Assembly: GCA_964569555.1 (NCBI GenBank)
Contig: CAZMTT010000001.1
Coordinates: 1 to 57,761, forward strand
Origin: an uncultured Dehalococcoidales bacterium
Lineage (GTDB): Bacteria > Chloroflexota > Dehalococcoidia > Dehalococcoidales > JAUYDJ01
Length of the DNA stretch: 57,761 nt
Direction: 5' to 3'
The notes below the pieces were generated by a model, which saw nothing but the letters and a program-made list of their open reading frames with translations, was not told where the DNA came from and did not search any database. Position numbers and translations under genes: made by a program. Positions 2,427 to 31,755 of this stretch are shown piece by piece; position 1 is the first letter of the stretch; each line of letters starts with the position of its first letter.

Positions 2427-2465
2427 CGACCGGCTGCTGCCCTAGAGAATCCCGGGTGAAGTGAA

Positions 2466-3674: not shown

Positions 3675-4069
3675 TGAAGAGAAAACGAGGCATATTACTC
3701 CCGGCTGAGTCGGGGATGACGCTGGTGGAGACAGCAGTGGCGCTGGCTGTTCTGGGCACGATTGCCGTCGTCTTTCTGAGCGGTCTGGCAATCAGTTCTA
3801 AAGCGGTAATCATCGCCGATGAGCAGACTACCGTGGAGAGCCTGGCGCAGAGCCAGATGGAGTGGGCCAAAGGGGTTGACTATGTGTATGAAGCCAGTGA
3901 GTATTCCCCGGCACCGATACCAGCCGGCCAGGATTATACTGATTATTCGGCTAACATCACCGCTGAGCCTTTACATACCCCCGATGATGGTATTCAGAAG
4001 ATAACGGTTACCGTCAGACGTCTGGGGGAAATGGTAATGGAACTGGAAGGTTACAAGGTGGACCGATGA
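3671..4069 (+). CDS. prepilin-type minor pilin/pseudopilin
   Basis: N-terminus ...AESG|MTLVETAVALAVLGTIAVVFL has the class III signal: Gly-1, Glu+5 and a hydrophobic helix. 4-nt overlap with pilC. Confidence 0.7.
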   Translation: MMKRKRGILLPAESGMTLVETAVALAVLGTIAVVFLSGLAISSKAVIIADEQTTVESLAQSQMEWAKGVDYVYEASEYSPAPIPAGQDYTDYSANITAEPLHTPDDGIQKITVTVRRLGEMVMELEGYKVDR

Positions 4070-4596: not shown

Positions 4597-4610
4597 CTGA
4601 TGAGGGAACA

Positions 4611-5465: not shown

Positions 5466-5480
5466 TTAAAAATACAGGAG

Positions 5481-6044
5481 ATGGCATTGAAGCTGACTAA
5501 AACAAGCTGGATACTGCTGACGGTTGGTGTGTTTATTATCGTCTTCGCCAGCCTGGGTGTGGTTTTGTACCAGCGGCTTGACCAGCAGAGCCATCTGGAG
5601 GGCGAGCTTAAGCTGGCCCAGCAGAAGCTAAACGTGGTTCAGCTTGAGCCACTTTCCCAGCAGCGGGCAGAGCTGGAGGAGCAGCTATATGAAATCGTGT
5701 CGGAGTCTGAGGATGCCAAGGCAGCCCTTTCGCAGGCAGTTACCAGCACTGCCGTCAGCGATACCCTGTTTGATATTGCGGCCACTTATGATGTGACCAT
5801 AACCGAGTTAAGCTCCACCGGCCTGGCGGCGGAAGAACTGGCGGGGGTTACCTGCTCGGCGCTACCCTTTACCGGCCGGGTGGAGGGAGACTTATCCGAT
5901 ATCGTCAATTTTGTGGTAAGGCTGAACAATGACCTGAGCACCGGTGTGGTCAGGTCGGTGGCAATTGATGTTCCGCCAACGCCTAATGGAGAGAATTCAA
6001 CCGCCAGCCTGACGCTGGTGATTTACAGTTATCAGGGTGACTGA
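5481..6044 (+). CDS. PilO/GspM-like bitopic pilus alignment protein
   Basis: Short N-terminus, one TM helix (WILLTVGVFIIVFASLGVVLY), a coiled coil, then a small globular domain. It sits just before the pilM/N fusion and overlaps it by 8 nt. Confidence 0.5.
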   Translation: MALKLTKTSWILLTVGVFIIVFASLGVVLYQRLDQQSHLEGELKLAQQKLNVVQLEPLSQQRAELEEQLYEIVSESEDAKAALSQAVTSTAVSDTLFDIAATYDVTITELSSTGLAAEELAGVTCSALPFTGRVEGDLSDIVNFVVRLNNDLSTGVVRSVAIDVPPTPNGENSTASLTLVIYSYQGD

Positions 6045-7506: not shown

Positions 7507-8576
7507 TGGATATTTTTCCGTTGCTTAATCTGGCGGTAACCCGGCTTGCTTCTGACTTGCACCTCATTGCCGACAGCCCGCCGCTGCTGCGCATCAATGG
7601 TGAGCTTAGCCCGCTAGCCGATATGCCACCGCTGACGGCGGATGATATTGCTCAGGCTTTCCAGCAGCTGGCCTCGGACCGGGAAAGGGCTGACTTTGAG
7701 CGCTGTCTTGAGCTTGATTTTGGCTACACTATTCCTGGTGTTTGCCGGCTCCGCTGTAATGCGGCTAAGCAGCGCGGGACGATTAGCCTTACCATCCGCC
7801 TAATCCCACTCCAGATCCCTAATATTGATGAACTGGGGCTGCCCGAAATATGCAGGGAGCTGATTCTCAAGCCCCGCGGTCTGGTGGTGATCAGCGGTCC
7901 CACCGGGAGCGGCAAAACGACCACGCTGGCGGCGATGGTCAACCATCTGAACAGCAGCCAGAAACGCCGTGTGGTCATCGTGGAAGACCCCATTGAGTAT
8001 GTCTATGCCAATCTGGGGTGCACCATAACCCAGCGGGAGCTGGGCAGCGATACCCTCTCTTTTGCCGGGGCGCTGAAGCATGTTTTGCGGCAGGACCCGG
8101 ATGTTATCCTGGTCGGTGAGATGAGGGACCTGGAGACGGCGGCGGCGGTGCTTACCATTGCCGAGACCGGTCATCTGGTACTGACCACCGGCCATGCCCC
8201 GGCCGCCCCCCAGGCGGTGGAGCGGATAATAGACCTGTTTCCGCCTCACGAGCGTCACTTAGCCCAGTCGCGGCTGGCTTCGCTGCTGCTGGCGGTCCTG
8301 TGCCAGGTGCTCGTCCCCAAAGCTGATGGCTCGGGGCGGGTGGCGGCGGTTGAGGTAATGCTGGCCAGCCCGGCGGTAAGAAACACCATCCGCGAGGGCA
8401 GGATTCACCAGTTGCCGACCACTATTCTGACACAGGCCCGGCTGGGGATGGTCTTGCTTGACCACGCCCTGGTCAAGCTCTACCGGGAGAAAGTAATCAG
8501 CCATGAAACGCTGCTTGCTTTTGGTAATGACCCGGAGGAAGTAGTCAAGCTTGTGGGCAAGCTGCCTCAAGCGTAG
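7503..8576 (+). CDS. pilT: twitching-motility retraction ATPase PilT
   Basis: 357 aa. Walker A GPTGSGKTT, Walker B DPDVILVGEMRD, His box TGHLVLTTGHA, PilT signature AVRNTIREGRIHQL. 4-nt overlap with pilM/N. Confidence 0.9.
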   Translation: MMDIFPLLNLAVTRLASDLHLIADSPPLLRINGELSPLADMPPLTADDIAQAFQQLASDRERADFERCLELDFGYTIPGVCRLRCNAAKQRGTISLTIRLIPLQIPNIDELGLPEICRELILKPRGLVVISGPTGSGKTTTLAAMVNHLNSSQKRRVVIVEDPIEYVYANLGCTITQRELGSDTLSFAGALKHVLRQDPDVILVGEMRDLETAAAVLTIAETGHLVLTTGHAPAAPQAVERIIDLFPPHERHLAQSRLASLLLAVLCQVLVPKADGSGRVAAVEVMLASPAVRNTIREGRIHQLPTTILTQARLGMVLLDHALVKLYREKVISHETLLAFGNDPEEVVKLVGKLPQA

Positions 8577-8671
8577 TTACACTCAGTCCCCGGCTAAATC
8601 AGCCGGTTGATTATTCGCTCAGATTACGCCCCCTATTGACGGGCTGGGCAACAGCAGGCAAAATGTAGCCA

Positions 8672-9463
8672 GTGGAAGTTGCGTTAATTATTCTTTTTTT
8701 CTTACTCGGTTCGGCGGTGGGCAGTTTCCTCAACGTCTGCATGGACCGTCTGCCTGCCGACCGCTCACTGCTCCGTCCCGCCTCTCACTGTGATAGCTGC
8801 CAGCACCCGCTATCGGTAAGCGACCTCGTGCCTATATTCAGCTACCTATGGCTGCGCCGCCGCTGCCGCTACTGTCAGGCTGCCCTGCCCCGCCGCCCCT
8901 TCTGGGTGGAACTGGGCAGCGCCGGTCTTTTTGCTTTCGGCTACTGGTATTACGGCCTGAGTGTTGATTTAGCCGTTATCATCTTTTACTGCTGTCTCTT
9001 TATCGTGCTCGCCGTCATTGACCTGGAGCACGGGCTTATCCTGAATAAGATAGTCTATCCAGCGGCGGTGGTGGCGCTGGTAATCAGTGCCTTTTTCCCC
9101 CCGTCGGGCATTGTTGACCTCGCTTTAGGCTGGCCCTGGTTCGGACTGGTCAATAGCATTACCGGCGGGGCTATCGGTCTCATCTTCTTTTTGCTGCCCG
9201 CTTTAATTTACCCCGAGGGAATGGGGTGGGGGGATATTAAGATGGCTGGCCTGATCGGTCTGGTTACCGGCTCGGGGCTGGTGCTTTTCGCCTTGCTTAT
9301 CGGCATAATTCTGGGCGGGCTGGTAGCGGGGATTCTGCTCTTACTTAAAGTAAAGGGGTGGTGGGAGGCTATCCCCTTCGGTCCCTTCCTCTCGGTGGGG
9401 ACTATTGCCATACTGCTCTGGGGCAGTGATATTATCAACTGGTATCTGGGGCTGTTCTTTTAA
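8672..9463 (+). CDS. pilD: prepilin peptidase / N-methyltransferase PilD (peptidase A24)
   Basis: N-terminal CxxC...CxxC (CDSCQHPL...CRYCQA). Catalytic Asp motifs AVIDLEH and GWGDIKMAG. Polytopic membrane protein. GTG start. Confidence 0.9.
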   Translation: MEVALIILFFLLGSAVGSFLNVCMDRLPADRSLLRPASHCDSCQHPLSVSDLVPIFSYLWLRRRCRYCQAALPRRPFWVELGSAGLFAFGYWYYGLSVDLAVIIFYCCLFIVLAVIDLEHGLILNKIVYPAAVVALVISAFFPPSGIVDLALGWPWFGLVNSITGGAIGLIFFLLPALIYPEGMGWGDIKMAGLIGLVTGSGLVLFALLIGIILGGLVAGILLLLKVKGWWEAIPFGPFLSVGTIAILLWGSDIINWYLGLFF

Positions 9464-18457: not shown

Positions 18458-19633
18458 ATGCCGAGCACTTATGAAAAAGAAGCCTACCAGTTTCTGGCTG
18501 CCTATCGCTTTTTGGCTTACGCTCTGGCGGCTATGTTCACGCAGGTGGTGCCGGCACTCAGTATGCCGGCAATACCCGAGTTTCATCTCTACATAGTCCT
18601 GGCCATACTCGGCATCTATACCATCCTGAAGGTCTTCTCTCCTCTCCGCTGGCGGGAGAGGAGCCCGATGACCTATCTGATTCTAATCGGTGATTTTGTG
18701 CTCTGCATCTCTCTGGTTATTGCCACCAATGGACTGAATAGCAGCTTCCTGCTCTATTCGCTTACGCCCATTATGACCGCCGCCCTTCTCTTTGAGGAGA
18801 AAATCTCCCTCTCTCTGGCCGCCATTGCCTCCCTCTCCCTCTCTATTACCCACCTGACGTTGAGTCCGTACCTGAAAATGATTGATTGGATTATGCAGGG
18901 GCATAACCTCACCCTGCTCATTGTCTACACCCTCTTCTGTTTTGTGGTGGCGGCGGTGCCTTACCGCATTAACCTGAACATACGCCGGCGCATCGAGAGA
19001 GAGGCGATTATTCAGGAGCGCCGCCGAATTGCCCGGGAGATACACGATGGCGTTGCCCAGTCGCTCGGTTACCTCAATCTGAAGACCAAGCAGGTAAGCG
19101 ATTTGGTTACTTCCCACGAGACCCTGAAAGCGCTTAACGAGCTTGGCGATGTCAGGAAGATAGTGCAGGATACCTATGAGGATATCCGGGAATCCATTGA
19201 CCAGTTGAGCACCGAGATAAAGAACCTGCCCATAATACCCGCCCTGTCCAACTATACCAGTGAATTCGGCAACAATAATGGCATCAAGGTTCAGTTTAAA
19301 ACCGCCAAGGGCTTTCCCAACCTTTCCCCGGTGGCTGAGCTGCAGTTACTGCGCATCGCCCAGGAGACGCTGACCAATGTCAGGCGACACGCCCTGGCCA
19401 GTGAGGTAGGGGTTAAGCTGGAGAATACCCGTGATACGGTGACCATGAAAATCAAAGACAACGGGCACGGCTTCGTCCTCTCCGACCTGGAAAAAGCCCC
19501 GCCCGGCTACCACGGGCTGGCCATCATCAAAGAGAGGGCGGAGGGGCTGGGCGGTAGTCTGGAGATTACCTCTACCCCTCAGAAGGGGACGGAGCTGAAA
19601 GTTACCCTGCCTCTGGAGAAAGTGAGGCTGTAA
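18458..19633 (+). CDS. sensor histidine kinase, HisKA_3 (NarX/DesK-like) type, with a polytopic N-terminus
   Basis: 5-6 TM helices. H-box REIHDGVAQSL. N box LLRIAQETLTNVRRHA. G boxes DNGHGF and GLAIIKERAEGLGG. Confidence 0.85.
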   Translation: MPSTYEKEAYQFLAAYRFLAYALAAMFTQVVPALSMPAIPEFHLYIVLAILGIYTILKVFSPLRWRERSPMTYLILIGDFVLCISLVIATNGLNSSFLLYSLTPIMTAALLFEEKISLSLAAIASLSLSITHLTLSPYLKMIDWIMQGHNLTLLIVYTLFCFVVAAVPYRINLNIRRRIEREAIIQERRRIAREIHDGVAQSLGYLNLKTKQVSDLVTSHETLKALNELGDVRKIVQDTYEDIRESIDQLSTEIKNLPIIPALSNYTSEFGNNNGIKVQFKTAKGFPNLSPVAELQLLRIAQETLTNVRRHALASEVGVKLENTRDTVTMKIKDNGHGFVLSDLEKAPPGYHGLAIIKERAEGLGGSLEITSTPQKGTELKVTLPLEKVRL

Positions 19634-19634
19634 A

Positions 19635-20303
19635 GTGGAAGCGGTTAGAGTACTTATTGTGGATGACCATAGCCTGTTTCGCCGTGGCATCGCCAGCGTC
19701 TTAAGCAATGAAAAAAGCCTGAAGGTAGTCGGGGAGGCGGCTGATGGGCTGGAGGCGATTGAAAAGACGAAGCAAATCGCCCCGGATGTGATTCTGATGG
19801 ACCTCAGTATGCCACGCTGCAGCGGGCTGGAAGCCATTCAAGCCATCCAGACCGAGATGCCCCAGATTAATATTCTGGTCCTGACTGTCTCGGAGATGGA
19901 AGCTGACCTTCTGGCCGCCGTAAAATATGGTGCCCGCGGCTACCTGCTGAAGAAGGCGGAGCCGGAAGAGCTAATTCACGCCATCACTCATATTGCCCAG
20001 GGTGGCGTGATAATTTCACCACTGATGGCGGCCAAGCTGCTTACCGAGTTCAAGGAACTCAGCGCCGGGGTGAAAAAGGGACCGAGCAAGGAAGCTAAGG
20101 CTGACCTGAGCCCGCGGGAGGATGAGGTGCTGCACCTGGTGGCGCAGGGGGCAACCAATCGGGAAATCGCTGACTCCCTGTTTATCTCGGAGAACACGGT
20201 AAAGACCCACCTGAAGAGTATTATGGAGAAGCTGCACCTGGTAAACCGAAGTCAGGCGGCGGCTTATGCGGTTACGAAGGGGCTGATTCAGAATAAAGAC
20301 TAA
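19635..20303 (+). CDS. NarL/LuxR-family response regulator (canonical receiver)
   Basis: VLIVDDHSLFRRG, ILMDLSMP, LVLTVS, GYLLKK, and the LuxR HTH EVLHLVAQGATNREIADSLFISENTVKTHLKSIMEKL. GTG start 1 nt after the kinase stop. Confidence 0.9.
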   Translation: MEAVRVLIVDDHSLFRRGIASVLSNEKSLKVVGEAADGLEAIEKTKQIAPDVILMDLSMPRCSGLEAIQAIQTEMPQINILVLTVSEMEADLLAAVKYGARGYLLKKAEPEELIHAITHIAQGGVIISPLMAAKLLTEFKELSAGVKKGPSKEAKADLSPREDEVLHLVAQGATNREIADSLFISENTVKTHLKSIMEKLHLVNRSQAAAYAVTKGLIQNKD

Positions 20304-21278: not shown

Positions 21279-22802
21279 TCACTCAACAGTCTTGGTTTCA
21301 ACAACGATGGTACCGGCTTTGGTGTAGGGGTAGCCCTCCGGAGGTGGGATGGGGGTTAAAAATTGACCGCTTTCCTCCAGAGCGGTGAGGTATTTTCTAA
21401 AGATAAGGTAACTGTCTGCCTGACAGGTAATGGTTATTTTATCGCCCTGGTGAACGACGTCCTGCACCTGAACACCAAGCTGGTCGGCTTCGTCCTGAAT
21501 CAGCGTCAGGTCTTCAGTAAAGCCGCCGCCCAGATTAACAATGGCGTTATATTCGTCAATAGCCTTTTGCAGTGGTTCACGCTGGGCAATTTCCAGCTTC
21601 CTCCGTTCCAGCTCGTTATTAAATAGATTAAGCTTGGACTCTAACTGAGCCGTTTTCCCCATAGTATCAGAGGTCATTTGATATATCGGGAATAGCAGGA
21701 CGGTAGCCGCAATCAGCGAAACAACGATGTATACCTGCTTGGCAGAGGGTCGCCATGGGCGGTAGGTCCTGGGCAGGAGATTAATATCAAGTGATGAAAG
21801 GCCCTCATGTCCGAGACCTTCAGACAGCTCAGCTTCCCTCAGGGCAAGTCCGATGTTGACCGCATATTGAGAGACAGGGAAGTCGGCGGGGTATTCCAGA
21901 GGTGGTGCCAGCGGCTCAATGGGGTAGCCTAACCTTGCTTTTAGCTTATCTCTCGGGATAGCTTCCTCGGGCATCTGCCCGGTAATGAAGAAGGGTGTAT
22001 CCGGGTCGAGGGGTGTATCCGGGTGACGGGCATTATGAAAGTCTACCGTCAGCTCCATGGTCACCGCCAGATGCTCCGCCTTTTCTTCCGTGGTGAGTTT
22101 TTCCGGTTGCCAGGGTATAGTACGTATGATTTCAGGTATACCGTTAACCACGACAATGATATCAAAGCTGGCCGGTTCGGTATTGAGGATAAGAGCCTGT
22201 TCTCTATTGACTGCCCTGGTCAGGGCGATAGCCTTGAGTTCCAGTATGCTCGGATTGACGCCAGCCGCCTTCAAAGACTGTACTTCATTATCAATTGTGT
22301 CTCTGGGCACCCCGATGAGAAGAGCATGTGGCTCACCCTCACCGGCAAAAATAGTTTGCCAGGTGAGATATAGCTTGTCTTCCACCAGGGGCATTGTCTC
22401 CCGGGCTAAATCTTCAAAAGCTTCCTCCATGGTTGCCCCCGGTTCCGGGACTGGCATGGGCACGATGCGGCTTACCGAGTAAAGACCGCTGGCACTAGCC
22501 GTGATATCCCGTGCCCTGATACCGCTTGAATTCATCAGCTCCTTAACTACCGAGCCCAGAGGTTCGGCTTCAGGACCTGCCTCCCCTTCGGTGGCTGCCT
22601 CACTTGATTCGAGGGAAGCACTTGCCCAATTTTTGACTACTTTCCCCCGGGTCTCCAGGAGCCTGATGGCAGTGCTATCGATGTCAAGGGTTACCACTCC
22701 TCCGGTGGTTGTCCACCTCTTGGTGGACCTGCCTATCGCCTTCTGGAGTTTGTGCCAAGCCGTGCTTATATCAAGCTGTAAGAGGCCATTAGCCACGGTC
22801 AA
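21279..22802 (-). CDS. pilM: PilM fused to a PilN-like TM/coiled-coil segment (locus 2)
   Basis: Same architecture as 6037..7506: an actin-like N-part, the LNILP/INLLP motif, a TM helix (VYIVVSLIAATVLLFPIY), a coiled coil and a small C-domain. Confidence 0.75.
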   Translation of the reverse strand: MTVANGLLQLDISTAWHKLQKAIGRSTKRWTTTGGVVTLDIDSTAIRLLETRGKVVKNWASASLESSEAATEGEAGPEAEPLGSVVKELMNSSGIRARDITASASGLYSVSRIVPMPVPEPGATMEEAFEDLARETMPLVEDKLYLTWQTIFAGEGEPHALLIGVPRDTIDNEVQSLKAAGVNPSILELKAIALTRAVNREQALILNTEPASFDIIVVVNGIPEIIRTIPWQPEKLTTEEKAEHLAVTMELTVDFHNARHPDTPLDPDTPFFITGQMPEEAIPRDKLKARLGYPIEPLAPPLEYPADFPVSQYAVNIGLALREAELSEGLGHEGLSSLDINLLPRTYRPWRPSAKQVYIVVSLIAATVLLFPIYQMTSDTMGKTAQLESKLNLFNNELERRKLEIAQREPLQKAIDEYNAIVNLGGGFTEDLTLIQDEADQLGVQVQDVVHQGDKITITCQADSYLIFRKYLTALEESGQFLTPIPPPEGYPYTKAGTIVVETKTVE

Positions 22803-22829
22803 TTACTCCTTTCAGCATGGTCAGCCAAG

Positions 22830-24209
22830 CTATTCACTCTCCTGGGGTTTGGTATAGATTTCAACATTCAAAATGGCCAGGGTATCAACGTTCAGGTACT
22901 CGGTGGCGCTTGATACATCCGGACCGTCAAATTGCCGTACCGTCCCGTCCCGCTCGCAGGTATAGTAATACTCAGTGCTCAGGTAGGGGAAATAGCTTAT
23001 GGTTTCAAACTCGGTGGTATTAGTACTGACGGTCTTATCATGCTCATAAAGCACATATCCATTCCTGGGGAAGCGGTCTCCGGTGTAGCCTTTTTCTTCG
23101 GTGTTGGTGATGATATCGGGAAAGCCTTCTTTGGCTATCTTGGTGCTGGGGTTATCCCCCATAAAATTGGTGGCCACACCACTGATAAAGTTCAGCGAGT
23201 TGGGTATCAGGGCCAGGTTATTATCCTGCATCATCTCAATGACGGCTGCGGAGACGAGGTACAGCTCTCTCCGCCTCGCTTCCCGCTCGCTGATGGGATA
23301 CTCGGCGGCGGTGGTTACATCGGGACCGTCAAACTGCCGTATGGTTCCATCAGCCTCACAGGTGTAGTAGTATTCCGTTTCTAAATCGGGAAAGTAGCTA
23401 ACGGTGGTGAAATCCTCCGTAGCCGTGTCTACGATTTTGTCATGCTCATAAAGCACGTATCCATTCCGTGGTGACTCCTCACCAATGTAGCCTTTCTGGT
23501 CTACGGTGCTGATAATATCGGGGAAGCCTTCTATTTTGTCCCTGGTATCAGGGTCATCGCCCATCTTATTGCTGGCCAGTCCGCTGACAAAGTCCATCGG
23601 ATAGGGTATCTTGGACAGGTCGTTATCCGCCATCAGGTCCTGCACCGCCAGGAATATAGCGTAAAATTCCTCCTGTCTGGCTTCCTCTTCCGAGGTGCCC
23701 GCAAATTCAAACTGGCTGATATGGGCGCTCTTAAGCACCATAGTCTGCAGTATCTCACTGGAGTCGAGCTTGGTGACAAATGCCATCACATTGTCATAGT
23801 CGCCCTGCGCCCGGATATTGTTGATAGCCAAGACCTGGTATTTGCCCTCACCCATCTGCTTTGTTTGGGGTGGATTTAGCGGCGGGATGGTAAATTCGCC
23901 GCTATCCGGGTCGACATCAACCCCGCTCTCATCAGCCAGTTTAACGATGATATCAAGAACTTCCTCCGCGGCTAGCGGAGCCAGGGCCTGGTTAACCGTT
24001 TCGTACTCCGCCTGTAACTTCTCCACTGAGGGTAATGGCTTGTTAACTACACTGCTTATTCCGGTGATTCGTTTTTGAAGTTCGGCCTGCTTTGAGTTCT
24101 GCTGAAAATAGAGAATGCCCATGGCGGTATAGAGAATCAGGAAGAAACCAAATAAAAATAGGGAGCCGGTGGGCCAATATCTCTGTAACAGAGCTTTTAG
24201 TCTGTCCAT
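22830..24209 (-). CDS. PilO-like bitopic protein with a C-terminal tandem duplication of a ~134-aa pilin-head-like domain
   Basis: TM helix FLFGFFLILYTAMGILYF, a coiled coil and a globular part, as in 5481..6044. Two internal repeats follow (residues ~174-304 and ~307-438). Confidence 0.6.
   Translation of the reverse strand: MDRLKALLQRYWPTGSLFLFGFFLILYTAMGILYFQQNSKQAELQKRITGISSVVNKPLPSVEKLQAEYETVNQALAPLAAEEVLDIIVKLADESGVDVDPDSGEFTIPPLNPPQTKQMGEGKYQVLAINNIRAQGDYDNVMAFVTKLDSSEILQTMVLKSAHISQFEFAGTSEEEARQEEFYAIFLAVQDLMADNDLSKIPYPMDFVSGLASNKMGDDPDTRDKIEGFPDIISTVDQKGYIGEESPRNGYVLYEHDKIVDTATEDFTTVSYFPDLETEYYYTCEADGTIRQFDGPDVTTAAEYPISEREARRRELYLVSAAVIEMMQDNNLALIPNSLNFISGVATNFMGDNPSTKIAKEGFPDIITNTEEKGYTGDRFPRNGYVLYEHDKTVSTNTTEFETISYFPYLSTEYYYTCERDGTVRQFDGPDVSSATEYLNVDTLAILNVEIYTKPQESE
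22896..23690 (-). repeat. intragenic tandem duplication (2 x ~400 bp, diverged) encoding the repeated domain
   Basis: Copy 1 is 23298-23690 and copy 2 is 22896-23291. Shared blocks include GFPDII, PRNGYVLYEHDK, VSYFP/ISYFP, TEYYYTCE-DGT-RQFDGPDV and AEY/TEY. Confidence 0.7.
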
Positions 24210-24275
24210 TCTTTAATCTTCTTTAATCTCAACTAGCTTTTGCATCTATTACCGGAAGAGCCGGTTTCTTTTCGC

Positions 24276-24653
24276 CTATTGCCATCTGTCACGCAGCGCC
24301 TTCTGCACCCTCTCTTCTACGGTTTCCTCTATCGCCTGTTCAGTTGGCTTTTCTGATTCTTGCTCCAGCCTGGCCAGTTCCTCATCATAGAAAAAGGAAT
24401 ATAGTTGTCTCCCCCGCCGCCACCCCACCAGCCAGACCATAGCCAGGCCGAAGATGGCAATCGGCCCCACCCACTCAATGCCGAGGCCTTCAAAGAGCAG
24501 GATGATAACCAGGATTAAGATGGCGAACAGAAAGATAGCACAGTTAAGGTCCCACCGCGAGTTTCTGGACCTTACTCTGGCTCTGGCCGCCGCCAGCGCT
24601 TTCATTTCCTCAATTTTATCGGTGGCTTCCGAGGGAGCTTTGGTTTCTTCCAT
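24276..24653 (-). CDS. small 2-TM membrane protein with charged termini (hypothetical)
   Basis: 125 aa. Hydrophobic core NCAIFLFAILILVIILLF and GPIAIFGLAMVWLVGW. SD AAGGAGAAAAA before the ATG. No counterpart in locus 1. Confidence 0.5.
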   Translation of the reverse strand: MEETKAPSEATDKIEEMKALAAARARVRSRNSRWDLNCAIFLFAILILVIILLFEGLGIEWVGPIAIFGLAMVWLVGWRRGRQLYSFFYDEELARLEQESEKPTEQAIEETVEERVQKALRDRWQ

Positions 24654-24678
24654 ATTTTTCTCCTTGTCTTTTTAGGTG

Positions 24679-24705
24679 CTTGGTGAGCACTATACACTCA
24701 CCAAG
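24679..24705 (-). other. intercistronic stem-loop between the PilX-like gene and the 2-TM gene
   Basis: CTTGGTGAG-9 nt-CTCACCAAG, a 9-bp perfect stem. No U-tract on the coding (-) strand. Confidence 0.3.
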
Positions 24706-24734
24706 CGTTATTATCAATGATAGCTAGATGCCTG

Positions 24735-26138
24735 CTATCTCATTTGATACGAAGTTATCGAAACACCACCGACCACCAGCGCCAGGTTGGAGTCAAGAAT
24801 TATCCCCTCGGCATCAGCCCGCGAGTCATAGGTGGGCACGGTCACGGCACCGCTGTTCCAGCTGTAGCAGGTGTAATATTCATCCCCGGTAATACCAATG
24901 TCTAGGAATACCTGCGGTATCGAAACATCAGAAATTACCTGAACCTCGTTGTAGTAGCTGCCGGACACGTCCTTGGTCGTGGTGGCCACGAAGTCTAGGT
25001 GCAAAGTCTCACCAGCGGCGATGGATATCGCCGGCGAGAACAACCAGTAAAGCTCCAGCCGGTCTACGCCGTTGATTTCTCTCTCGGTCTCCACCGGGTC
25101 ATTAGTGGTCATATTACTGGTCGGACCGGTGTAGGTGAAGCCCGGGGGCAGGTAGTCATATATTTCCTCAATATGGTTGGTAAAACCGTCCTGGTTGGTG
25201 ATTTGGATGGTGTAATCAATATCGGTCAATACGCCGGGCGGGATAATCTCGGGGTCGGAGGTTTTCACTATCTGGATTAGCCCGTCATCATCACATACCC
25301 CGGGATTGGCCGGGTTCCCCACCGTCAGAGGGGCCTGGGGACCGCTGAGGGTATCCCATGGCTTCAAGACAATCCAGTTGCAGTGCACCCGGTCGTTGTC
25401 CGCCGCTTTAAACTGGTGTGTCAACTTGAATTTTATTTCCTTCACCTGCCTGGCGGTGAAGTTCCTCATGCCGTGAAAGTAGTTGGGACTGGTGTTGTCC
25501 GAGGAGAAGGGATTGGCTTCGGTGTCAGGGTTGTAATTGGCCGGCCACTTCAGACGCCAGCGTGTGGGCGGGTTCTCGAAGGCAGGGTCGGGGATGCTCA
25601 GCCAGGGACCGCCGTCTGTTCTCATATAACAGCTACCCTCGACAAACTCAGTGTCATCGTAAACGTCGGGCAGGATTTCATAGACAGCATCCAGACCCTG
25701 GGTGGTATTGGCGCTGAGCTGTTCCAGTTTTATGGTATAGGTAACGGTTTGTAAGGTGTTATTGGGGATGGTGTCCGGGGTAACCGTCTTGGTCGGCTGG
25801 ATGACGTCATCGGTGGCCAGGATTATCCCGCCTTTACCGGGCACCGCCCGCATGATGATGGTGAGGTTGACCGATATCGGGCAGGTATCGCAGGTGAGGT
25901 ATCCCACCGGATTCTCTGTTGTGAATTCATTGCCGAACTCGTCATACAGTAGCTTCCACAGGATGTATTCCTGCGCCGTGTCGGCGGCGTAGATTAACTG
26001 CGTCTGGCGGGTGGCAATCTGGCTGCTCTTGAGTGAGGTATCGGTCAGCCGGAGCGCCTGAATTGCCAGTGTTGAGCCGATGGCGAGCAGTATCAGGACC
26101 AGAAGGAAGACCTGTCCCACCTCTTTCTTTTTCATCAC
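24735..26138 (-). CDS. large PilX-like pilus protein with two DUF11/Ig-like domains (candidate tip adhesin)
   Basis: N-terminal helix GQVFLLVLILLAIGSTLAI without Glu+5. PilX_N-like LIYAADTAQEYILW. Two segments match the DUF11 pattern: KTVTPDTIP...VTYTIKL...ILPD, and VKTSDPEIIPPGVLTDIDYTIQITNQDG...IYDYLPPGFTY. Confidence 0.6.
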   Translation of the reverse strand: MMKKKEVGQVFLLVLILLAIGSTLAIQALRLTDTSLKSSQIATRQTQLIYAADTAQEYILWKLLYDEFGNEFTTENPVGYLTCDTCPISVNLTIIMRAVPGKGGIILATDDVIQPTKTVTPDTIPNNTLQTVTYTIKLEQLSANTTQGLDAVYEILPDVYDDTEFVEGSCYMRTDGGPWLSIPDPAFENPPTRWRLKWPANYNPDTEANPFSSDNTSPNYFHGMRNFTARQVKEIKFKLTHQFKAADNDRVHCNWIVLKPWDTLSGPQAPLTVGNPANPGVCDDDGLIQIVKTSDPEIIPPGVLTDIDYTIQITNQDGFTNHIEEIYDYLPPGFTYTGPTSNMTTNDPVETEREINGVDRLELYWLFSPAISIAAGETLHLDFVATTTKDVSGSYYNEVQVISDVSIPQVFLDIGITGDEYYTCYSWNSGAVTVPTYDSRADAEGIILDSNLALVVGGVSITSYQMR

Positions 26139-26632
26139 TCTATCACCTCCGCCCGGATAAAGCCGCTGAACTCAACGGTGGCGCTCCGCTGCGGTACGCT
26201 GGAACCGGTGGCGGTAATGGTGACATTGATTACTCTGCCGTTCTGGGTAAAGCCGAGGTCGGTTATGTGCCGGCCCACAATGCTCATCACGCCGTCGTAG
26301 GTGCGCTGCAGCACGGTACCGGAAAGGGTGTACTGGCAGTTATGGGAAGTGCTGTTCTCCGATGAAAAGCCGGTGTAGTCCGTCCAGCTCAGGGTCACCG
26401 AGCTTTGCGGGACCGGGTCGCCGTCGGTGAGGTCGGTGGTCTGGGTCATCATCAGGTCTTTCTTGATGGCTAACGCTGCCTGATTTACATCGGTCAGGGC
26501 GACCACCTGGCTGTTGTTCCGGCCGGTGCCCCAGACAATCTGGTAGAAGCTCATAGAGGCGCCTACCAGTATGACGCTGCCGATGGCTAGCGTTACCAAT
26601 AGTTCAATCAGTGTGAACCCGGCCTGTTTCAT
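26135..26632 (-). CDS. prepilin-type minor pilin/pseudopilin
   Basis: MKQAG|FTLIELLVTLAIGSVIL, a canonical cleavage/methylation motif. 4-nt overlaps on both sides. Confidence 0.8.
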   Translation of the reverse strand: MKQAGFTLIELLVTLAIGSVILVGASMSFYQIVWGTGRNNSQVVALTDVNQAALAIKKDLMMTQTTDLTDGDPVPQSSVTLSWTDYTGFSSENSTSHNCQYTLSGTVLQRTYDGVMSIVGRHITDLGFTQNGRVINVTITATGSSVPQRSATVEFSGFIRAEVIE

Positions 26633-27060
26633 TTCTTTGTCCTCGCCGTGCAGATTGCCAGGACCTCTTTTCCCGACTCCCGGTATACGGTAACGATAAT
26701 TCTCTGGAAGGTCTCGGTTCCGGTACAGCTACCAAAGCTCTCGGCGGCATCGGCATCGTTGGTGCATTCGGTGGTGGCAATCATGCTGTATTGTGTGGGG
26801 ACAGTAATATTATAAGATTCGGCATCGGGGTAGCTAGCGTTGTAGGAGCTGGACTTGATATTCTCTATATAGTCACTGGCCAGACTGGCGGCGGTTACCT
26901 TCTCATCGGTGATGCTGACGGCGCGGTAGTTGGTACTAAGGGCGGCCACCACGCTCGCCCCGATAAACCCCAGAATGGCCACGGCTACCAGGGTTTCCAT
27001 CAGGCCTATGCCCTGCTGCCCCTGGAAAAACCCAGTTATTGCCTTAACCAGAAATTTCAT
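26629..27060 (-). CDS. prepilin-type minor pilin/pseudopilin
   Basis: ...QQGIG|LMETLVAVAILGFIGASV with Glu+5. Colinear with 3671..4069 of locus 1. Confidence 0.7.
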   Translation of the reverse strand: MKFLVKAITGFFQGQQGIGLMETLVAVAILGFIGASVVAALSTNYRAVSITDEKVTAASLASDYIENIKSSSYNASYPDAESYNITVPTQYSMIATTECTNDADAAESFGSCTGTETFQRIIVTVYRESGKEVLAICTARTKK

Positions 27061-27085
27061 AACATCAGCGTACCATCACTTTTGA

Positions 27086-28336
27086 TTAACCAAAGGCGCC
27101 GGTGAGGGTATACATTGGCATTAGTACCGAGATGGCGATAAAACCGACCAGCAGTGCAATGCCGACGGTAGCCAGTGGGCCTATCAAGCCGACTATGGTA
27201 GCTGCCTTTTCGTCGGCGGTAGATTCGCAGAAATCAGCCACCACTCCCAGAGTGAAGTCAAGGGTGTTGCTTTCCTCCCCGACGGCTACCATCTGGATGA
27301 GTAGTGGCGGGAACAGGGCAATACGGGACATCGGTGCGGCTAATCCCTCACCCAGATAAAGCTTGTCCCTGAGTTCATCCAAGGCGCTACGGAAGACATA
27401 ATTATTGGTGGAGTAGGGCGCCATCTCCATTATCTCCTGCAGGTTCATCCCGGCGCTTATCAGTACCGATACCGTTCGGCTGAAACGGCCCAGCTCTGAC
27501 ATGAGAGTCGTCGTCCCGATTAAGGGCGCATTGAGCCGGATACGGTCAAGTATCCGCCTTCCGGTCGGCTGCTTGACCATCCACAGTATCGTCGCCACCA
27601 ATATTGCCCCGATGATGACGAGATAGAGCATGTTGCCGGTGACAAATCCGGTCAGTCCAATCAGGATTCGGGTGGGCAGGGGTAGCTCCACATTCATGGT
27701 GGTGAACATGTCCAGCAGGCTTGGCATGACCACGGTGATAAGAATTATAATGACTACAAAGCCGACGCCAAGGACTATCGCGGGATAGACCAGAGCCTTA
27801 CTTATCTTTTTGGCCATCATGTTCTGTCGTTCCTGATAGTCAGCCATTCGCTGCAGGACACTATGCAAGTCTCCCGATTGTTCGCCAACGGAAATGGTCC
27901 GGTAATAAATCTCGCCAAAAGCCTTGGGGTGTTTGCTCAGGGCCTGGGAAAATGAAACTCCGCCGCGTATGTCTAAAATAATGGCTTCCAGAATTTTCTT
28001 AAAGGCACGACTGGTGGCTACCTGGCCCTGAAGAATTTCCATTGCCGGTAGCAGTGAGATGCCTGACCGGAGCAGTATCGCCAGCTGGCGAGAAAAGACG
28101 ATGACATCCCGCGGCTTTACCGTAAAAAAGGTCGGCAGTGCCTCTTCCAGGCTGAACATAGAAGGGGCGACCTGTACCTGTATCGGGTTGTAGCCCTTAG
28201 CGATAATAAGCCGCTCTGCGGCCAGCTCATTGGGCGCCTTGACGCTGCCCTTTACCAGCTTTCCCTGCCGGTCATAGGCTTCATAGCGGTAGGTTAGCGG
28301 TTTTGGCTTTTTAATGCTCTCAATAGTGCTGGTCAT
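27086..28336 (-). CDS. pilC: type IV pilus platform protein PilC (locus 2)
   Basis: 416 aa with two T2SSF repeats (RSGISLLPAMEIL, SAGMNLQEIMEMA) and 3 TM segments. Confidence 0.9.
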   Translation of the reverse strand: MTSTIESIKKPKPLTYRYEAYDRQGKLVKGSVKAPNELAAERLIIAKGYNPIQVQVAPSMFSLEEALPTFFTVKPRDVIVFSRQLAILLRSGISLLPAMEILQGQVATSRAFKKILEAIILDIRGGVSFSQALSKHPKAFGEIYYRTISVGEQSGDLHSVLQRMADYQERQNMMAKKISKALVYPAIVLGVGFVVIIILITVVMPSLLDMFTTMNVELPLPTRILIGLTGFVTGNMLYLVIIGAILVATILWMVKQPTGRRILDRIRLNAPLIGTTTLMSELGRFSRTVSVLISAGMNLQEIMEMAPYSTNNYVFRSALDELRDKLYLGEGLAAPMSRIALFPPLLIQMVAVGEESNTLDFTLGVVADFCESTADEKAATIVGLIGPLATVGIALLVGFIAISVLMPMYTLTGAFG

Positions 28337-28343
28337 TTTTCCC

Positions 28344-30056
28344 CTAATAGGTTATGGAGAAGACATTGCGAATGACTTCGCCGGGGGTGGTGATACCCAT
28401 TTTTACTTTCAGCATGCCATCATGCCACAGTGAGAGCATACCTTCTTTATAGGCGACAGAGCGAATTTCATTGGCGCTGGCACCGGCCAGGACCAGCCGG
28501 TTCAGGTCCTCGCTCATGGTCAAAACCTCAAAGATGCCGGTTCGACCCTGAAAGCCGGTGTTGGCACAGAAAGTGCAACCGGCGCCGATTATGAATTCAG
28601 TGCGCTTCTCCTTAAATTCTTTCTCGTAGGCTTCCCGTTCATCGTCAGGGACCGACGTAGGTCCGGAGCAATAGGGGCAGACCTTGCGCACCATTCTCTG
28701 GGCGACCACGCCAATCAGTGCTGAGGTAATCAGGAAGGCTTCTACACCCAGGTCTATCATCCGGTAAATGGTGGCTACGGCGTCATTGGCGTGGACTGAG
28801 GAGAGCACTAGGTGACCGGTCAGGGCGGCCTGGGTGGATATCTGGGCCGTCTCCGCATCACGTATCTCACCGACCAGAATGACATCCGGGTCAAGTCTCA
28901 TGCAGGCCCTAAGCCCGGTGGCAAAGTTCACTCCGGCGGCGGGATTGACCTGCATCTGGTTAATATTGGTAAAGCGGTACTCTACCGGGTCTTCAATGGT
29001 GAGGATATTGCGTCCGATGGCATCAAGCTGGTTGACCGTGGCGTACTGGGTGGTGGTCTTACCGGAGCCGGTGGGACCGCTGATTAAAATTATGCCAAAG
29101 GGGGTCTTTACCATTCTCGCGTATCGCCCCAGAATATCGGGTAGAAAGCCAATCTCCGCTAACGGCAGAAAGGCGAAGGTTTTGTCCAGAATCCGGAGCA
29201 CCGCCATTTCCCCGTATACCGTATTGGAGGTAGCCACCCGGATATCAACCTCTCTATCCTCCATGTCAAAGGTGATCTGACCATCCTGGGGGCGGCGGCG
29301 CTCGGCAATATTGAGCCCGGCCATAATCTTCACCCGGGAGAGCAGCGGCTCGTGGACATTCAAGGGGAGGGACATAACTTCGCTCAAAATACCATCAATG
29401 CGGTAGCGGATGCGCAGCTTGTCATCCTGAGGCTCAACGTGGATATCTGAGGCCCGGTCTCTTACCGCCTGCTTGATAAGCAGGTCAATGGCACGTACCA
29501 CCGGGGCTTGAGCAATGGCTTCGGCGGAGACCCGTGTCTCTCTCATCCCGCCGCCGCCACTTCGGTAGCGAAGCGGAATTTGGCTGAGCTGTTCTTCAAT
29601 CTCGCCACCAATCCGGTAGTTGAGGTCAATCATCTCCTGGATATCCTGGAAGGTGCTGATTACCGGCTCAATCCGTTTCATGGTCAGGGAAGTTAGCTCC
29701 TCAATGGTGTGGATATCTCTCGGGTCTTCCATGGCAACCACGACGGCACCATCCAGCATACGTACCGGGATAACGCCGTATTTTCGGGCGATTGCTTCTG
29801 GAATTAGCTTCAGGGCTTGTGTTTGGACTCCCTCTTTCTTCAGATTGACGAAGGGAATCCCCAGCTGAAGGCTGATGAAGAAAGCAAGTTGCTGGGTGGT
29901 GACTAAACGCTGCTGGAGCAGAATTCGCTCTACCCTTTCGCCACTCTTACGCTGCAGCTCCTGGACGCGGGTGAGCTGCTCATCGCTAACCAGCCCGCCT
30001 TCAACCAGTAGCTGCCCCAGATCTTTCTTGGCTACTTTTTTCTCTGATGACTTCAC
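28344..30056 (-). CDS. pilB: type IV pilus assembly ATPase PilB with an MshEN-like N-terminal extension (locus 2)
   Basis: 570 aa. Walker A GPTGSGKTT, Walker B DPDVILVGEIRD, His box, CPYC...CTFC. N-terminal LGQLLVEGGLVSDEQLTRVQELQ plus RVERILLQQRLVTTQQLAFFISLQ. Confidence 0.92.
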   Translation of the reverse strand: MKSSEKKVAKKDLGQLLVEGGLVSDEQLTRVQELQRKSGERVERILLQQRLVTTQQLAFFISLQLGIPFVNLKKEGVQTQALKLIPEAIARKYGVIPVRMLDGAVVVAMEDPRDIHTIEELTSLTMKRIEPVISTFQDIQEMIDLNYRIGGEIEEQLSQIPLRYRSGGGGMRETRVSAEAIAQAPVVRAIDLLIKQAVRDRASDIHVEPQDDKLRIRYRIDGILSEVMSLPLNVHEPLLSRVKIMAGLNIAERRRPQDGQITFDMEDREVDIRVATSNTVYGEMAVLRILDKTFAFLPLAEIGFLPDILGRYARMVKTPFGIILISGPTGSGKTTTQYATVNQLDAIGRNILTIEDPVEYRFTNINQMQVNPAAGVNFATGLRACMRLDPDVILVGEIRDAETAQISTQAALTGHLVLSSVHANDAVATIYRMIDLGVEAFLITSALIGVVAQRMVRKVCPYCSGPTSVPDDEREAYEKEFKEKRTEFIIGAGCTFCANTGFQGRTGIFEVLTMSEDLNRLVLAGASANEIRSVAYKEGMLSLWHDGMLKVKMGITTPGEVIRNVFSITY

Positions 30057-30074
30057 TTTCTCCTCCCCTCCGGG

Positions 30075-31106
30075 TTAGCCTTCTTTTGGCGCCAGCCTGA
30101 TTCGGAGCATCCCCTTTTTCCCTTTTGCCGGGCTGTCCTTATCGCTTTGCTCCACTATTGGTTCTACTTCAGGTAGCCGGGACGATAAAGCGCTAATGAC
30201 GGGGACTGGCTTATCCAGCGCCACCGTTATCGTGGTGCCCCGGTCCAGAGAGCCAGTGCTATGGACCAGCTTTACCTCCGGCGTGGTCTGCAGGTAGGTG
30301 AACAATTTAGTCATCACCTTGGGGTCTACCGGCGAGGCGATGATTAGCTCTATTTCGCCGGTATAAAGGGTCTGGTCACCGCTGGTCTTCACTTGAGTGG
30401 TGCCTTTTTCAGAGGGGGGTGACTCCGCCGACTCATTTTTGGTGGCCGTGGCTGTTTCGGCTGCGGCCGGCTCTATCTTATCTTCAGCAACCGCCTCTTC
30501 AGGCTCGGCCGGTGGCTCTATCTTATCTTCAGCAACCGCCGCTTCAGGCTCGGCCGGTGGCTCTACCTTCTCTTCAATAGCCGCCTCTTTAGCGGCAGTC
30601 TCGGCGGCTTTCTTCAGTTCCTCGGCTTCCAGTTTAGCCTGGCTGGTAATTTTCTCCGCCTCTGCCCTGGCTTCTTCGGTAGCAGTAGCCTCGGCGGCTT
30701 TCTTCAGTTCCTCGGCTTCCAGTTTAGCCTGGCTGATAATTTTCTCTGCCTCTGCCCTGGCTTCTTCGGTAGCGGTAGCCTCGGCGGCTTTCTTCAGTTC
30801 CTCGGCTTCCAGTTTAGCCTGGCTGGTAATTTTCTCCGCCTCTGCCCTGGCTTCTTCGCTAACGCTGGCTTCGGCGGCTTTCTTCAGTTTATCGGCTTCC
30901 CTTTTGGCCTGGCTGATGATTTTCTCCGCCTCCGCCTTGGCCTCTTCCAGGGCGGCTATCTGTTCCGCCTCGTCCACTACCGACTCAGCCGCCCGCTCAT
31001 TGGTGGCGCTGATTATCTGGTCCTCATCGCGCTCCTTGGGTGGCTTGCTCTTTCGCTGCACCATCCAGGGCATGACGACTCTTCTTTTCGGTGTTTCTGC
31101 AGTCAT
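30075..31106 (-). CDS. repeat-rich coiled-coil protein of unknown function, first gene of locus 2
   Basis: 343 aa with no signal peptide or TM helix. Four 30-aa units EEARAEAEKI(I/T)SQAKLEAEELKKAAEATAT, three 15-aa Pro/Glu units, and a ~90-aa C-terminal globular part. Its stop is 18 nt before the pilB2 start. Confidence 0.6.
   Translation of the reverse strand: MTAETPKRRVVMPWMVQRKSKPPKERDEDQIISATNERAAESVVDEAEQIAALEEAKAEAEKIISQAKREADKLKKAAEASVSEEARAEAEKITSQAKLEAEELKKAAEATATEEARAEAEKIISQAKLEAEELKKAAEATATEEARAEAEKITSQAKLEAEELKKAAETAAKEAAIEEKVEPPAEPEAAVAEDKIEPPAEPEEAVAEDKIEPAAAETATATKNESAESPPSEKGTTQVKTSGDQTLYTGEIELIIASPVDPKVMTKLFTYLQTTPEVKLVHSTGSLDRGTTITVALDKPVPVISALSSRLPEVEPIVEQSDKDSPAKGKKGMLRIRLAPKEG
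30471..30605. repeat. 45-bp tandem repeat, 3 copies, coding (AEDKIEPPAEPEEAV units)
   Basis: CTCTATCTTATCTTCAGCAACCGCC... recurs at 30471 and 30516, and in diverged form at 30561. Confidence 0.8.
30601..30960. repeat. 90-bp tandem repeat, 4 copies (3 near-identical, 1 diverged), coding
   Basis: Units are 30601-30690, 30691-30780, 30781-30870 and 30871-30960. The first three differ at only a few positions. Confidence 0.9.
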
Positions 31107-31160
31107 AAAGTGTTACCTTCCTGTTGGTGGTCACCTAAAACTACTTTTTCCCACTCTAAA

Positions 31161-31189
31161 ATCATAATTCGCCACTCGGCAAATGTCAA
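31161..31189 (-). promoter_or_regulatory. candidate sigma70-type promoter of pilus locus 2
   Basis: On the - strand: TTGACA (31189-31184), 17-nt spacer, TATGAT (31166-31161). About 55 nt upstream of the ATG at 31106. A second TTGACA lies at 31210-31205. Confidence 0.45.
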
Positions 31190-31440
31190 CTAGATATGCC
31201 TGTTTGTCAAGTTGTCCACTGCCAACCATTATAATTTGCCAAAAGGCACTTGGGGTTGAGGCTTTACCGGTGGGCTTTTTACTTTCATTGTAGCGGAGTG
31301 AGGTTAAATCTTCGTTAAAATAGATTAAATCTACATTAAGATAGGGTGAAATTTAGCTAAAATTTTGCCGGCGGCAGATAGAGAGGCACTGGTTATCCTG
31401 AATTCTATCGAATGCGGTTACGCCGCCGGCCTGGTATTGG

Positions 31441-31755
31441 CTACTCTTCGTCTTCTTTGCCCCAGCTCTGCATCATTTCCCGGATGCGCTGGGCAAGTTT
31501 GGGGCTGGAGCGCAGCCGCTCAATGAAAATGGGGCAGCCCTCCAGCAGTGAATTCTGGGCGGCGGTGGCCATGCTGGAGAGCAGGTTCTGCAGGCTAATG
31601 TCCGTCTGTGGCGCAAAGCTGGCGCCGGGTGTTGATGACTCCATCTGTCGGCGGATGTCATCGGCGGTGAACCTCATCGGCATGACACAGGTTTTATACC
31701 ACGGGCATTCCTTGCACTGGACGATACTATAGGCTTCATCCAAAATATCACTCAT
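31441..31755 (-). CDS. small Cys-containing hypothetical protein
   Basis: 104 aa with CKECPWYKTC and a fourth Cys (EGCPIF). SD GGAGG before the ATG. Sits downstream of the tlpA-like and ccdA genes. Confidence 0.5.
   Translation of the reverse strand: MSDILDEAYSIVQCKECPWYKTCVMPMRFTADDIRRQMESSTPGASFAPQTDISLQNLLSSMATAAQNSLLEGCPIFIERLRSSPKLAQRIREMMQSWGKEDEE

Follow-up and report, generated by a model that had tools for sequence, protein, structure and literature searches.

The window analysed here, a stretch of 57,761 nt from contig CAZMTT010000001.1 of an uncultured Dehalococcoidales bacterium, encodes on its minus strand, directly in front of the type IV pilus ATPase gene pilB2, a repeat-rich protein that we refer to as X. 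By the searches made here, X belongs to a previously unnamed family that is found only in Dehalococcoidia and is built on a new C-terminal domain, and a gene of this family precedes pilB in 26 related loci. The data support the view that X is functionally coupled to PilB2. On the basis of synteny and architecture, we favour, at a probability of roughly 45%, the reading that X is a membrane-proximal rod or adaptor of a length-variable kind, which would tether, position or regulate PilB via its C-terminal domain.

Linkage of X to pilB

X and pilB2 are arranged as follows (coordinates are those of the window):

30075..31106, minus strand: gene X, a coding sequence of 343 aa with an ATG start and the first gene of the pilB2 operon, according to the list of open reading frames (ORFs) and to homologues that occupy the same position in the 26 loci
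30057..30074, minus strand: X-pilB2 spacer of 18 nt with the pilB2 ribosome-binding site, containing GGAGGGGAGGAG
28344..30056, minus strand: pilB2, encoding a PilB-type assembly ATPase, with a GTG start (Pfam T2SSE 3.4e-121, MshEN N-domain 1.4e-19)

In all 26 loci the X homologue is the gene immediately ahead of pilB and has the same orientation; the two genes are separated by -4 to 199 nt. The set comprises the 14 genome loci recovered with the C-terminal domain, where the gene was directly upstream of pilB-pilC in 14 of 14 cases, together with L001, L017-L020, L022-L025, L029, L030 and CP070693.1; some of these loci probably represent the same populations. The PilB proteins encoded downstream of the X homologues are 61-96% identical to PilB2. 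In L018 the X-pilB pair is kept, pilC is missing and the next gene encodes RNase H. In CP070693.1, a single contig of 1.12 Mb, X is intact, its stop codon overlaps the pilB start, and the context reads CcdA-TlpA-orf104-X-PilB-PilC. Conservation of the upstream genes orf104, TlpA and CcdA does not extend beyond close relatives, so that X is the first gene of the conserved block. An earlier account of this DNA, made without database searches and called the sequence-only reading below, had proposed X as a partner of PilB, a proposal that homologues unlinked to pilB elsewhere were to refute; this test was run and did not refute it, the homologues of the 26 loci being linked to pilB.

Within the window, the TAA stop codon of X (30075-30077) and the GTG start of pilB2 at 30056 leave 18 nt between the two genes, exactly as the sequence-only reading had it, and a terminator scan found no minus-strand terminator-like site between X and pilB2. 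After X, the same strand carries pilB2, PilC, two prepilin-like genes, a gene for a DUF11 protein, p125, p459 and a PilM-like gene. The best explanation of this arrangement is that X is the promoter-proximal gene of a second type IV pilus operon, consisting of X, pilB2, pilC2, pilins, p467, p125, p459 and a pilM-like gene. The block X-PilB-PilC-(pilins)-p125-p459-PilM is also kept across Dehalococcoidia metagenome-assembled genomes (MAGs).

Architecture and family of the X protein

An AlphaFold2 model of X was built with an 80-sequence family alignment. The protein consists of four parts:

31026..31106, minus strand: basic N-terminus (aa 1-27), which includes MPWMVQRKSK; net charge +5, low predicted local distance difference test (pLDDT) values, unstructured
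30567..31025, minus strand: long alpha-helical rod (aa 28-180), rich in Ala, Glu and Lys, net charge -16; AlphaFold2 helices 28-141 and 144-180 with pLDDT of about 80-90
30396..30566, minus strand: acidic, Pro-containing disordered linker (aa 181-237, 57 residues), net charge -12, 9 Pro; pLDDT below 50 at 186-231
30087..30395, minus strand: C-terminal domain (aa 238-340), beta-alpha-beta-beta-alpha-beta plus a terminal strand, ACT/ferredoxin-like, carrying the family signature

The sequence-only reading had described a 343-aa ORF without a transmembrane helix and with a globular C-terminal domain, and we found the same. The highest 19-residue Kyte-Doolittle mean in X is 0.97, no segment being transmembrane-like, and the N-terminus is basic, not hydrophobic. 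The C-terminal domain (residues about 238-340) reaches pLDDT values of 90-96 in the full-length model and is conserved in hundreds of proteins; modelled alone, it gave a pLDDT of 84.8 and a predicted template modelling score (pTM) of 0.75. Its strongly conserved loop motifs are YLQTTPE, GSWDRGT and LDKP. Foldseek searches against PDB, using either the full model or the C-terminal domain alone, returned nothing at E <= 0.001. The best neighbour of the domain was 3dc2_B, the regulatory (ACT-type) domain of M. tuberculosis PGDH (E = 0.037, probability 0.92, TM-score 0.38; 26% identity over 69 columns), and other ACT entries (SerB2, 3k5p, AcuB) appeared at E > 1, mixed with HMA, BMC and ribosomal ferredoxin-like folds. 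The hydrophobic periodicity of the rod peaks at 3.75 residues, barely above the best shuffle, and because this peak is merely a harmonic of the 30-residue repeat, we make no claim on coiled-coil handedness. The data support X as a real, cytoplasmic, elongated protein whose head, the C-terminal domain, is conserved, whose neck, made up of rod and linker, varies, and whose N-terminal foot is basic.

A word-indexed homologue search gave almost only truncated proteins, and the family was revealed by an exhaustive HMMER search, in which the C-terminal domain matched 245 representative clusters (50% identity) at E <= 1e-3, including 124 at E <= 1e-10. The domain is always C-terminal, in proteins of about 100-640 aa, and all organism-labelled members are Dehalococcoidia, Dehalococcoidales or Chloroflexota; plasmids and phages, searched for the same domain, gave no match. 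Against the family hidden Markov model (HMM), made from the C-terminal columns of alignment A2, X scores 118.5 bits (E = 4e-36), X itself being 1 of the 80 rows. Scans of X found no Pfam match at E <= 1, no NCBIfam match at threshold and no PHROGs family, and a PDB sequence search with X returned only designed coiled coils and weak ATP synthase b/E matches. The literature that we searched held no description of the X family and no paper combining Dehalococcoidia, type IV pili and pilB.

Family members share the C-terminal signature LYTGEVEL...YLQTTPEIK...GSWDRGTTITV.LDKP. Typical full-length members (290-470 aa) begin with MFKWLGQR..KK, followed by a helical unit of the form S.RS.LK.A..DAEQI..SIK..A..EAE.EA..II.QAK, which is longer in some members, then by an acidic linker and the C-terminal domain. 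X conforms to this layout with its basic start, its AEQI/EAE..II.QAK units and the acidic linker before the C-terminal domain; its MPWMVQRKSK corresponds to the MFKWLGQR..KK start when matched by eye. Conservation is highest in the C-terminal domain, which keeps 44-60% identity in distant relatives whose helix and linker align weakly or not at all. Two further matches were rejected. DUF4972, found in 13 of 80 relatives, consists of sub-threshold Ala/Glu-helix matches that reach at most 24.6 bits in members scanned singly, against a cut-off of 28.8. P0013, of 1340 aa and with 15 matched stretches, was excluded because the match is a spurious one to repeats; the protein is unrelated, with apparent glycosyltransferase-like domains.

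The N-terminal part varies among relatives. The motif LWGxEFxIVxxGLDExQVxxFV is present in 37 of 110 near-full-length relatives, and profile A4, made from it, has as its best PDB match the DivIVA N-terminal domain 7o39_A (E = 0.0037). The Pfam DivIVA family PF05103 was matched at 1e-5 by one of 80 relatives and has no match in X. In the PilB-linked relative P0063 (L030 163-1581), two N-terminal transmembrane helices (hydropathy 2.57 and 2.75) replace the basic or DivIVA-like start. A divergent paralogous subfamily, P0082 and P0197/P0112 (508-525 aa; loci L027 5001-6527, L028 5001-6578 and L026 75-1652), has the same C-terminal domain and a different repeat-rich coiled-coil N-part with a weak Pfam Scy match. 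The MAG JBHIDQ01 has both forms, one PilB-linked (L005) and one unlinked (L028).

Repeat variation and genomic surroundings

Two tandem arrays lie in the neck of X:

30588..30947, minus strand: four tandem 90-bp (30-aa) repeats in the rod, unit 1 old and units 2-4 nearly identical
30469..30589, minus strand: 45-bp (15-aa) Pro/Glu-rich repeats at the start of the linker (Tandem Repeats Finder: 2.7 copies, 90% matches)

Tandem Repeats Finder placed the 90-bp repeat at 30590-30947 with 4.0 copies, 91% matches and a score of 576, and in codon register the 30-aa units are 30858-30947, 30768-30857, 30678-30767 and 30588-30677. The four 90-bp units and the 45-bp repeats of the sequence-only reading are thus borne out; its coordinates for them (30601-30960 and 30471-30605) were off by about 13 nt, which matters little because the array is tandem, and the 45-bp repeat has 2.7 copies. 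Units 2-4 differ from one another by 3-7 nt per 90, and unit 1 differs from them by 15-18 nt. Unit 1 is orthologous across genomes, since the window copy differs from that of L022 by 9 nt and from the window's own later units by 15-18 nt. Units 2-4, in contrast, are 3-7 nt apart within a genome and 10-17 nt apart between genomes at the same position, and therefore point to recent duplication or gene conversion, i.e. concerted evolution.

The window and the identical contig L021 each have 4.0 copies of the 90-bp unit, L022 and L023 have 3.9 and CP070693.1 has 2.9, so that the recent expansion and the copy-number variation anticipated from the near-identity of the repeats are both seen. In most relatives the helical unit is present once. 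L025 has a 15-aa half-unit repeated 6.2 times, the Pro/Glu-rich 15-aa unit ranges from about 1 to 2.7 copies across relatives, and near-perfect tandem repeats with periods of 13, 15, 17, 29-31 or 51 aa occur in the rod or linker of 22 of 110 near-full-length relatives. In P0151 (PilB-linked), a 30-aa helical unit has expanded independently to 5.3 copies. Compared among close relatives, X is 75-80% identical and the neighbouring genes 87-98%; the divergence of X lies mostly outside the C-terminal domain, where 97-98 of 111 residues are identical. Insertions or deletions of complete 90-bp and 45-bp units leave the reading frame of X intact. Many database copies of the family stop short because their contig ends within the gene; it is in the repeats that contigs break, which is why short-read assemblies usually give the gene in truncated form. 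An identical copy of X is present on the metagenome contig Ga0315555_1048757, an independent contig record. In L017 (4283-6000), the X homologue is called as 120 aa, tblastn similarity runs upstream to about 5536, and 1.7 kb upstream are without a called gene; this short call probably reflects faulty gene calling or assembly where the sequence is rich in repeats.

The region around X and the remainder of locus 2 contain the following features:

31161..31189, minus strand: sigma-70-like promoter TTGACA-17-TATGAT, with 11/12 consensus matches in a consensus scan, about 55 nt before the X ATG
31115..31122, minus strand: X ribosome-binding site AGGAAGGT, 8 nt ahead of the ATG, read from the sequence
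31441-31755, minus strand: orf104 (104 aa), containing CKECPWYKTC, between a TlpA-like thiol-disulfide oxidoreductase gene and X; no family assignment
30397..31167, plus strand: antisense ORF of 256 aa, rich in Ser, Ala and Leu, spanning the repeat region
27086..28336, minus strand: PilC (pilC2), downstream of pilB2
24735-26138, minus strand: DUF11 protein of locus 2
24276-24653, minus strand: p125, a conserved gene of locus 2 with no assigned function
22830-24209, minus strand: p459, a conserved gene of locus 2 with no assigned function
21279..22802, minus strand: PilM-like gene, end of the locus 2 operon

The TTGACA-17-TATGAT block is kept among relatives, even in L025, where the X protein is only 47% identical, and we infer that it would act as a promoter. 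At the ribosome-binding site, GGAGGTAA/GGAAGGTAA is conserved in the alignment of relatives. A search of the 334-nt X leader for riboswitches or other known RNAs found none. At 31304-31344, about 120-180 nt upstream of the X promoter, lies a 21-bp direct repeat in two copies (consensus TCTATCTTAACGAAGATTTAA), which could be a binding site for a regulator. The same repeat is found at L022 1400-1441, L023 2765-2809 and L031 3765-3806, the leader being 82% conserved overall. Genes for a PilS-like histidine kinase (18458-19633) and a LuxR-type response regulator (19635-20303) flank locus 2, and a gene with Response_reg and GerE domains lies upstream of the X homologue in L017. Orf104 is 95-98% identical in L022 and L023, and CP070693.1 has a 104-aa gene at the same position; orf104 belongs with the CcdA-TlpA redox genes, not with the pilus operon. 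The antisense ORF is more likely a by-product of the repeats than a gene of its own, because its product mirrors the Glu, Ala and Lys codons of X. At many related loci tblastn with p459 gives two overlapping matches (query 1-309 and 308-459, to overlapping DNA), so that p459 may contain an internal domain duplication or vary in length. A tRNA gene on the plus strand is truncated at the window start, and only its 3' part, at 1-51, is included (Rfam tRNA, 38.6 bits).

Locus 1 of the window encodes PilB1, PilC1, pilins, PilM/N, PilT and PilD. When the C-terminal-domain HMM was run against a six-frame translation of the whole window, X alone was matched (E = 4e-36; next best E = 2), and locus 1 therefore has no X equivalent, near pilB1 or elsewhere, as the sequence-only reading had stated. 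Locus 1 (873-9463, plus strand) has PilT (7503-8576) and the prepilin peptidase PilD (8672-9463), and locus 2 (21279-31106, minus strand) has neither. PilB1 (873-2426, plus strand) and PilB2 (28344-30056, minus strand) are 56% identical from PilB2 residue 72 onward; PilB1 is without roughly the first 50-70 residues of the MshEN-type N-domain, and PilB2 keeps this domain complete. In MshE-type ATPases the MshEN-type N-domain region binds cyclic di-GMP. Given the loss in the PilB1 N-domain, the two loci may differ in second-messenger control.

Function of X: alternatives and significance

There is next to no chance that the X ORF is an artefact, i.e. a non-coding repeat or an assembly error. Its sequence has many repeats and low complexity, the same region is spanned by a long antisense ORF and short-read contigs often break inside the gene; however, the C-terminal domain is conserved in the 245 clusters with a confident fold, the frame is kept through whole-unit indels, the gene is intact in the 1.12-Mb single-contig genome and its identical copy stands on an independent contig, and these conservation data effectively refute the artefact. 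Very unlikely, in our view, is the kinship suggested by the sequence-only reading with FliH, subunits E/H of V/A-ATPases and the F-type b subunit, by which X would be a very divergent homologue of the peripheral-stalk/FliH class (V/A-ATPase E/H, F-type b, FliH/YscL) and a stator holding the PilB hexamer to the membrane platform. X does resemble FliH/YscL/HrpE, V/A-type E and H and F-type b in its Ala/Glu helix with the pattern A..EA..II..A..EA, in the C-terminal alpha/beta domain that follows this long N-terminal helix, a loose architectural parallel, and in the position of its gene beside that of a hexameric ATPase, and a series of sub-threshold matches points the same way. Against NCBIfam TIGR02926 AhaH, X scores 29.3 bits (E = 7.8e-07, residues 37-110 only; cut-off 48.5), against subunit b models 14.1 bits versus 198 and 11.6 versus 65.5, and against V-type subunit E 12 bits versus 241; the 80 relatives contain one match to HrpE/FliH, Pfam PF06188 (5.5e-5), and one to vATP-synt_E, Pfam PF01991 (6e-4), and the family helix profile matches ATP synthase b at E = 0.0018 (20.6 bits with a bias of 19.4) and V-type E at E = 0.025. 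Every one of these matches is below the curated cut-offs, and judged by these scores and their high composition bias the helix likeness to ATP synthase b and V-type E is marginal and composition-driven. Annotation pipelines have nevertheless named relatives accordingly: UCG10709.1 (CP070693.1; L031 4001-4912), 80% identical to X, was deposited as 'ATP synthase F0 subunit B', and P0063 is named 'vacuolar-type H+-ATPase subunit E/Vma4' in IMG. Both names are wrong, being unsupported in view of the sub-threshold scores, the non-atp context of UCG10709.1 and the lack of a transmembrane segment in X, and the misannotation of UCG10709.1 stems from the Ala/Glu-rich helix. Moreover, X is not contiguous from helix to domain as E and FliH are, since the disordered acidic linker (181-237) separates the two; the best 50 Foldseek neighbours of its C-terminal domain are of generic ferredoxin/ACT-like kinds (ACT, HMA, BMC-type folds) and include no FliH or V-ATPase subunit E C-domains; the DivIVA-like start of relatives is absent from stalk proteins; and X is without the N-terminal transmembrane helix of subunit b. 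The ATPases of the stalk/FliH class are RecA-type rotary or type III secretion system (T3SS) enzymes, whereas that beside X is of the PilB type (T2SSE), with no rotary or T3SS ATPase near. The proposed relationship thus did not hold up, and true FliH/E/b homology is the least supported of the stalk, ACT-like regulator and DivIVA/Scy-like scaffold alternatives. X may still work in a stator-like or tether-like way.

A regulator that responds to small molecules is an unlikely account of X; in this reading the ACT-like C-terminal domain would bind a metabolite or nucleotide, dimerise and switch the activity or assembly of PilB2, with rod and linker as passive parts. The beta-alpha-beta-beta-alpha-beta topology, the PGDH regulatory domain as best neighbour, the other ACT-containing entries and the very conserved loops speak for it, but the structural match lacks significance and shares its list with HMA, BMC and ribosomal ferredoxin-like folds, X has no Pfam ACT match, no ligand-site motif is identifiable, and the fold is very common and often purely structural. 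Unlikely, yet to be taken more seriously, is the view of X as a general DivIVA/Scy-like coiled-coil organiser of cytoskeleton or membrane, whose adjacency to pilB would reflect co-regulation or a shared site (pole or division site) and involve no direct contact with the ATPase or control of it. At curved membranes DivIVA acts as a recruitment factor for other machines, in Bacillus subtilis also for competence proteins through ComN. Like DivIVA/GpsB, those X relatives that have the motif F.IV..GLDE.QV..FV..L continue with a coiled-coil-type helix, repeat-rich coiled coils are typical of such scaffolds, and the pilB-unlinked paralogues with their weak Scy match fit as well. DivIVA differs in having no acidic linker and no ACT-like C-terminal domain and in not being known from pilus operons, and X is without the motif. 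The tight, long-lived adjacency in the 26 loci, with PilB identity down to about 61%, the retention of X and pilB only in L018 and the overlap of the translational-coupling type in CP070693.1 argue for a specific functional pair over loose co-regulation. Several observations nevertheless weigh against a PilB-tethering adaptor. The DivIVA-like similarity is marginal at E = 0.0037, and X and its close relatives (P0004, P0009, L022, L023, L025) lack the GLDExQV motif altogether; the transmembrane-anchored P0063 is a single case. Two of the paralogue loci lie among metabolic genes and not next to pilB, and since these unlinked paralogues carry the same C-terminal domain, the domain is not intrinsically PilB-binding. 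Furthermore, when PilB2 was compared with PilB1, no PilB2-specific insertion suited to docking was found.

To be positioned and switched, type IV pilus ATPases depend on adaptors, and those described, PilM, FimX/PilZ, SgmX, HmpF and ArlX, are lineage-specific; we know of no such adaptor described for Chloroflexota. ArlX (FlaX) is a coiled-coil scaffold of the archaellum that, together with ArlH, encircles and binds the PilB-like motor ATPase ArlI, and fits the idea of a stator for a PilB-family ATPase. It is archaeal, has an N-terminal transmembrane anchor and forms large rings; no homology to X was detected, and among X relatives transmembrane helices occur in P0063 only. FimV/HubP organise type IV pili and other polar machines and have acidic, repeat-rich, variable cytoplasmic linkers and a small conserved C-terminal interaction domain. 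They are large membrane proteins with a periplasmic LysM domain; to our knowledge, Dehalococcoidia are without peptidoglycan, and X differs from FimV/HubP in having no transmembrane segment, with no sequence similarity seen. The closest functional analogy that we found is HmpF, a cytoplasmic coiled-coil protein acting on PilB. This cyanobacterial protein co-precipitates with PilB, shares its peripheral localisation and is needed for type IV pilus twitching motility (PMC7002697). HmpF differs from X in being encoded in a hmp chemotaxis-like locus, not directly upstream of pilB, and in lacking the X-family C-terminal domain; the likeness is one of function, and no sequence relationship was seen, none having been sought.

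For the adaptor that we favour, we infer membrane association, PilB binding and a spacer function, as follows. The basic, aromatic N-terminus would sit at the inner face of the membrane, a placement suggested by the conserved aromatic/basic start, by the DivIVA-N-like motif that follows it in relatives and by the two transmembrane helices that take its place in P0063. The Ala/Glu/Lys-rich helix would form a rigid rod, either as a coiled coil or as a single stable helix, and the acidic Pro/Glu linker would provide flexible reach. The ACT/ferredoxin-like C-terminal domain would then dock on a conserved partner, most likely PilB2, and thereby recruit the ATPase to the pilus machine, position it there or regulate it. 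In the lineage of the window, a single ancestral 30-aa unit was amplified to four, and slippage or unequal recombination would homogenise the copies. The rod is thereby longer than that of most relatives; the length of rod and linker is the variable feature of the family, and changes in it may tune X. A bolder version, which we regard as improbable in its full extent, would see in X and its relatives a type IV pilus component of a new class, namely a 'molecular ruler' that is attached to the membrane and tethers PilB. Its length would be tuned fast as in-frame repeats are gained and lost and would set motor geometry or dynamics in the wall-less monoderm Dehalococcoidia, its C-terminal domain being a new PilB-docking module, possibly ligand-gated.

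X is a conserved hypothetical protein with strong guilt by association to PilB; its synteny with pilB is striking and its length polymorphism unusual, and its function is assigned by association only. We would place it among the lineage-specific coiled-coil adaptors of type IV pilus ATPases, with a C-terminal domain that is new. The analysis is of practical use in three ways: a conserved candidate for an adaptor has been defined, with a domain that is new and well folded; database names are corrected; and the truncations seen in short-read assemblies are explained. If the link to PilB is real, the natural length variants of the family, with 1 to 5.3 copies of the helical unit and varying linkers, would provide a series for relating tether length to the pilus motor.

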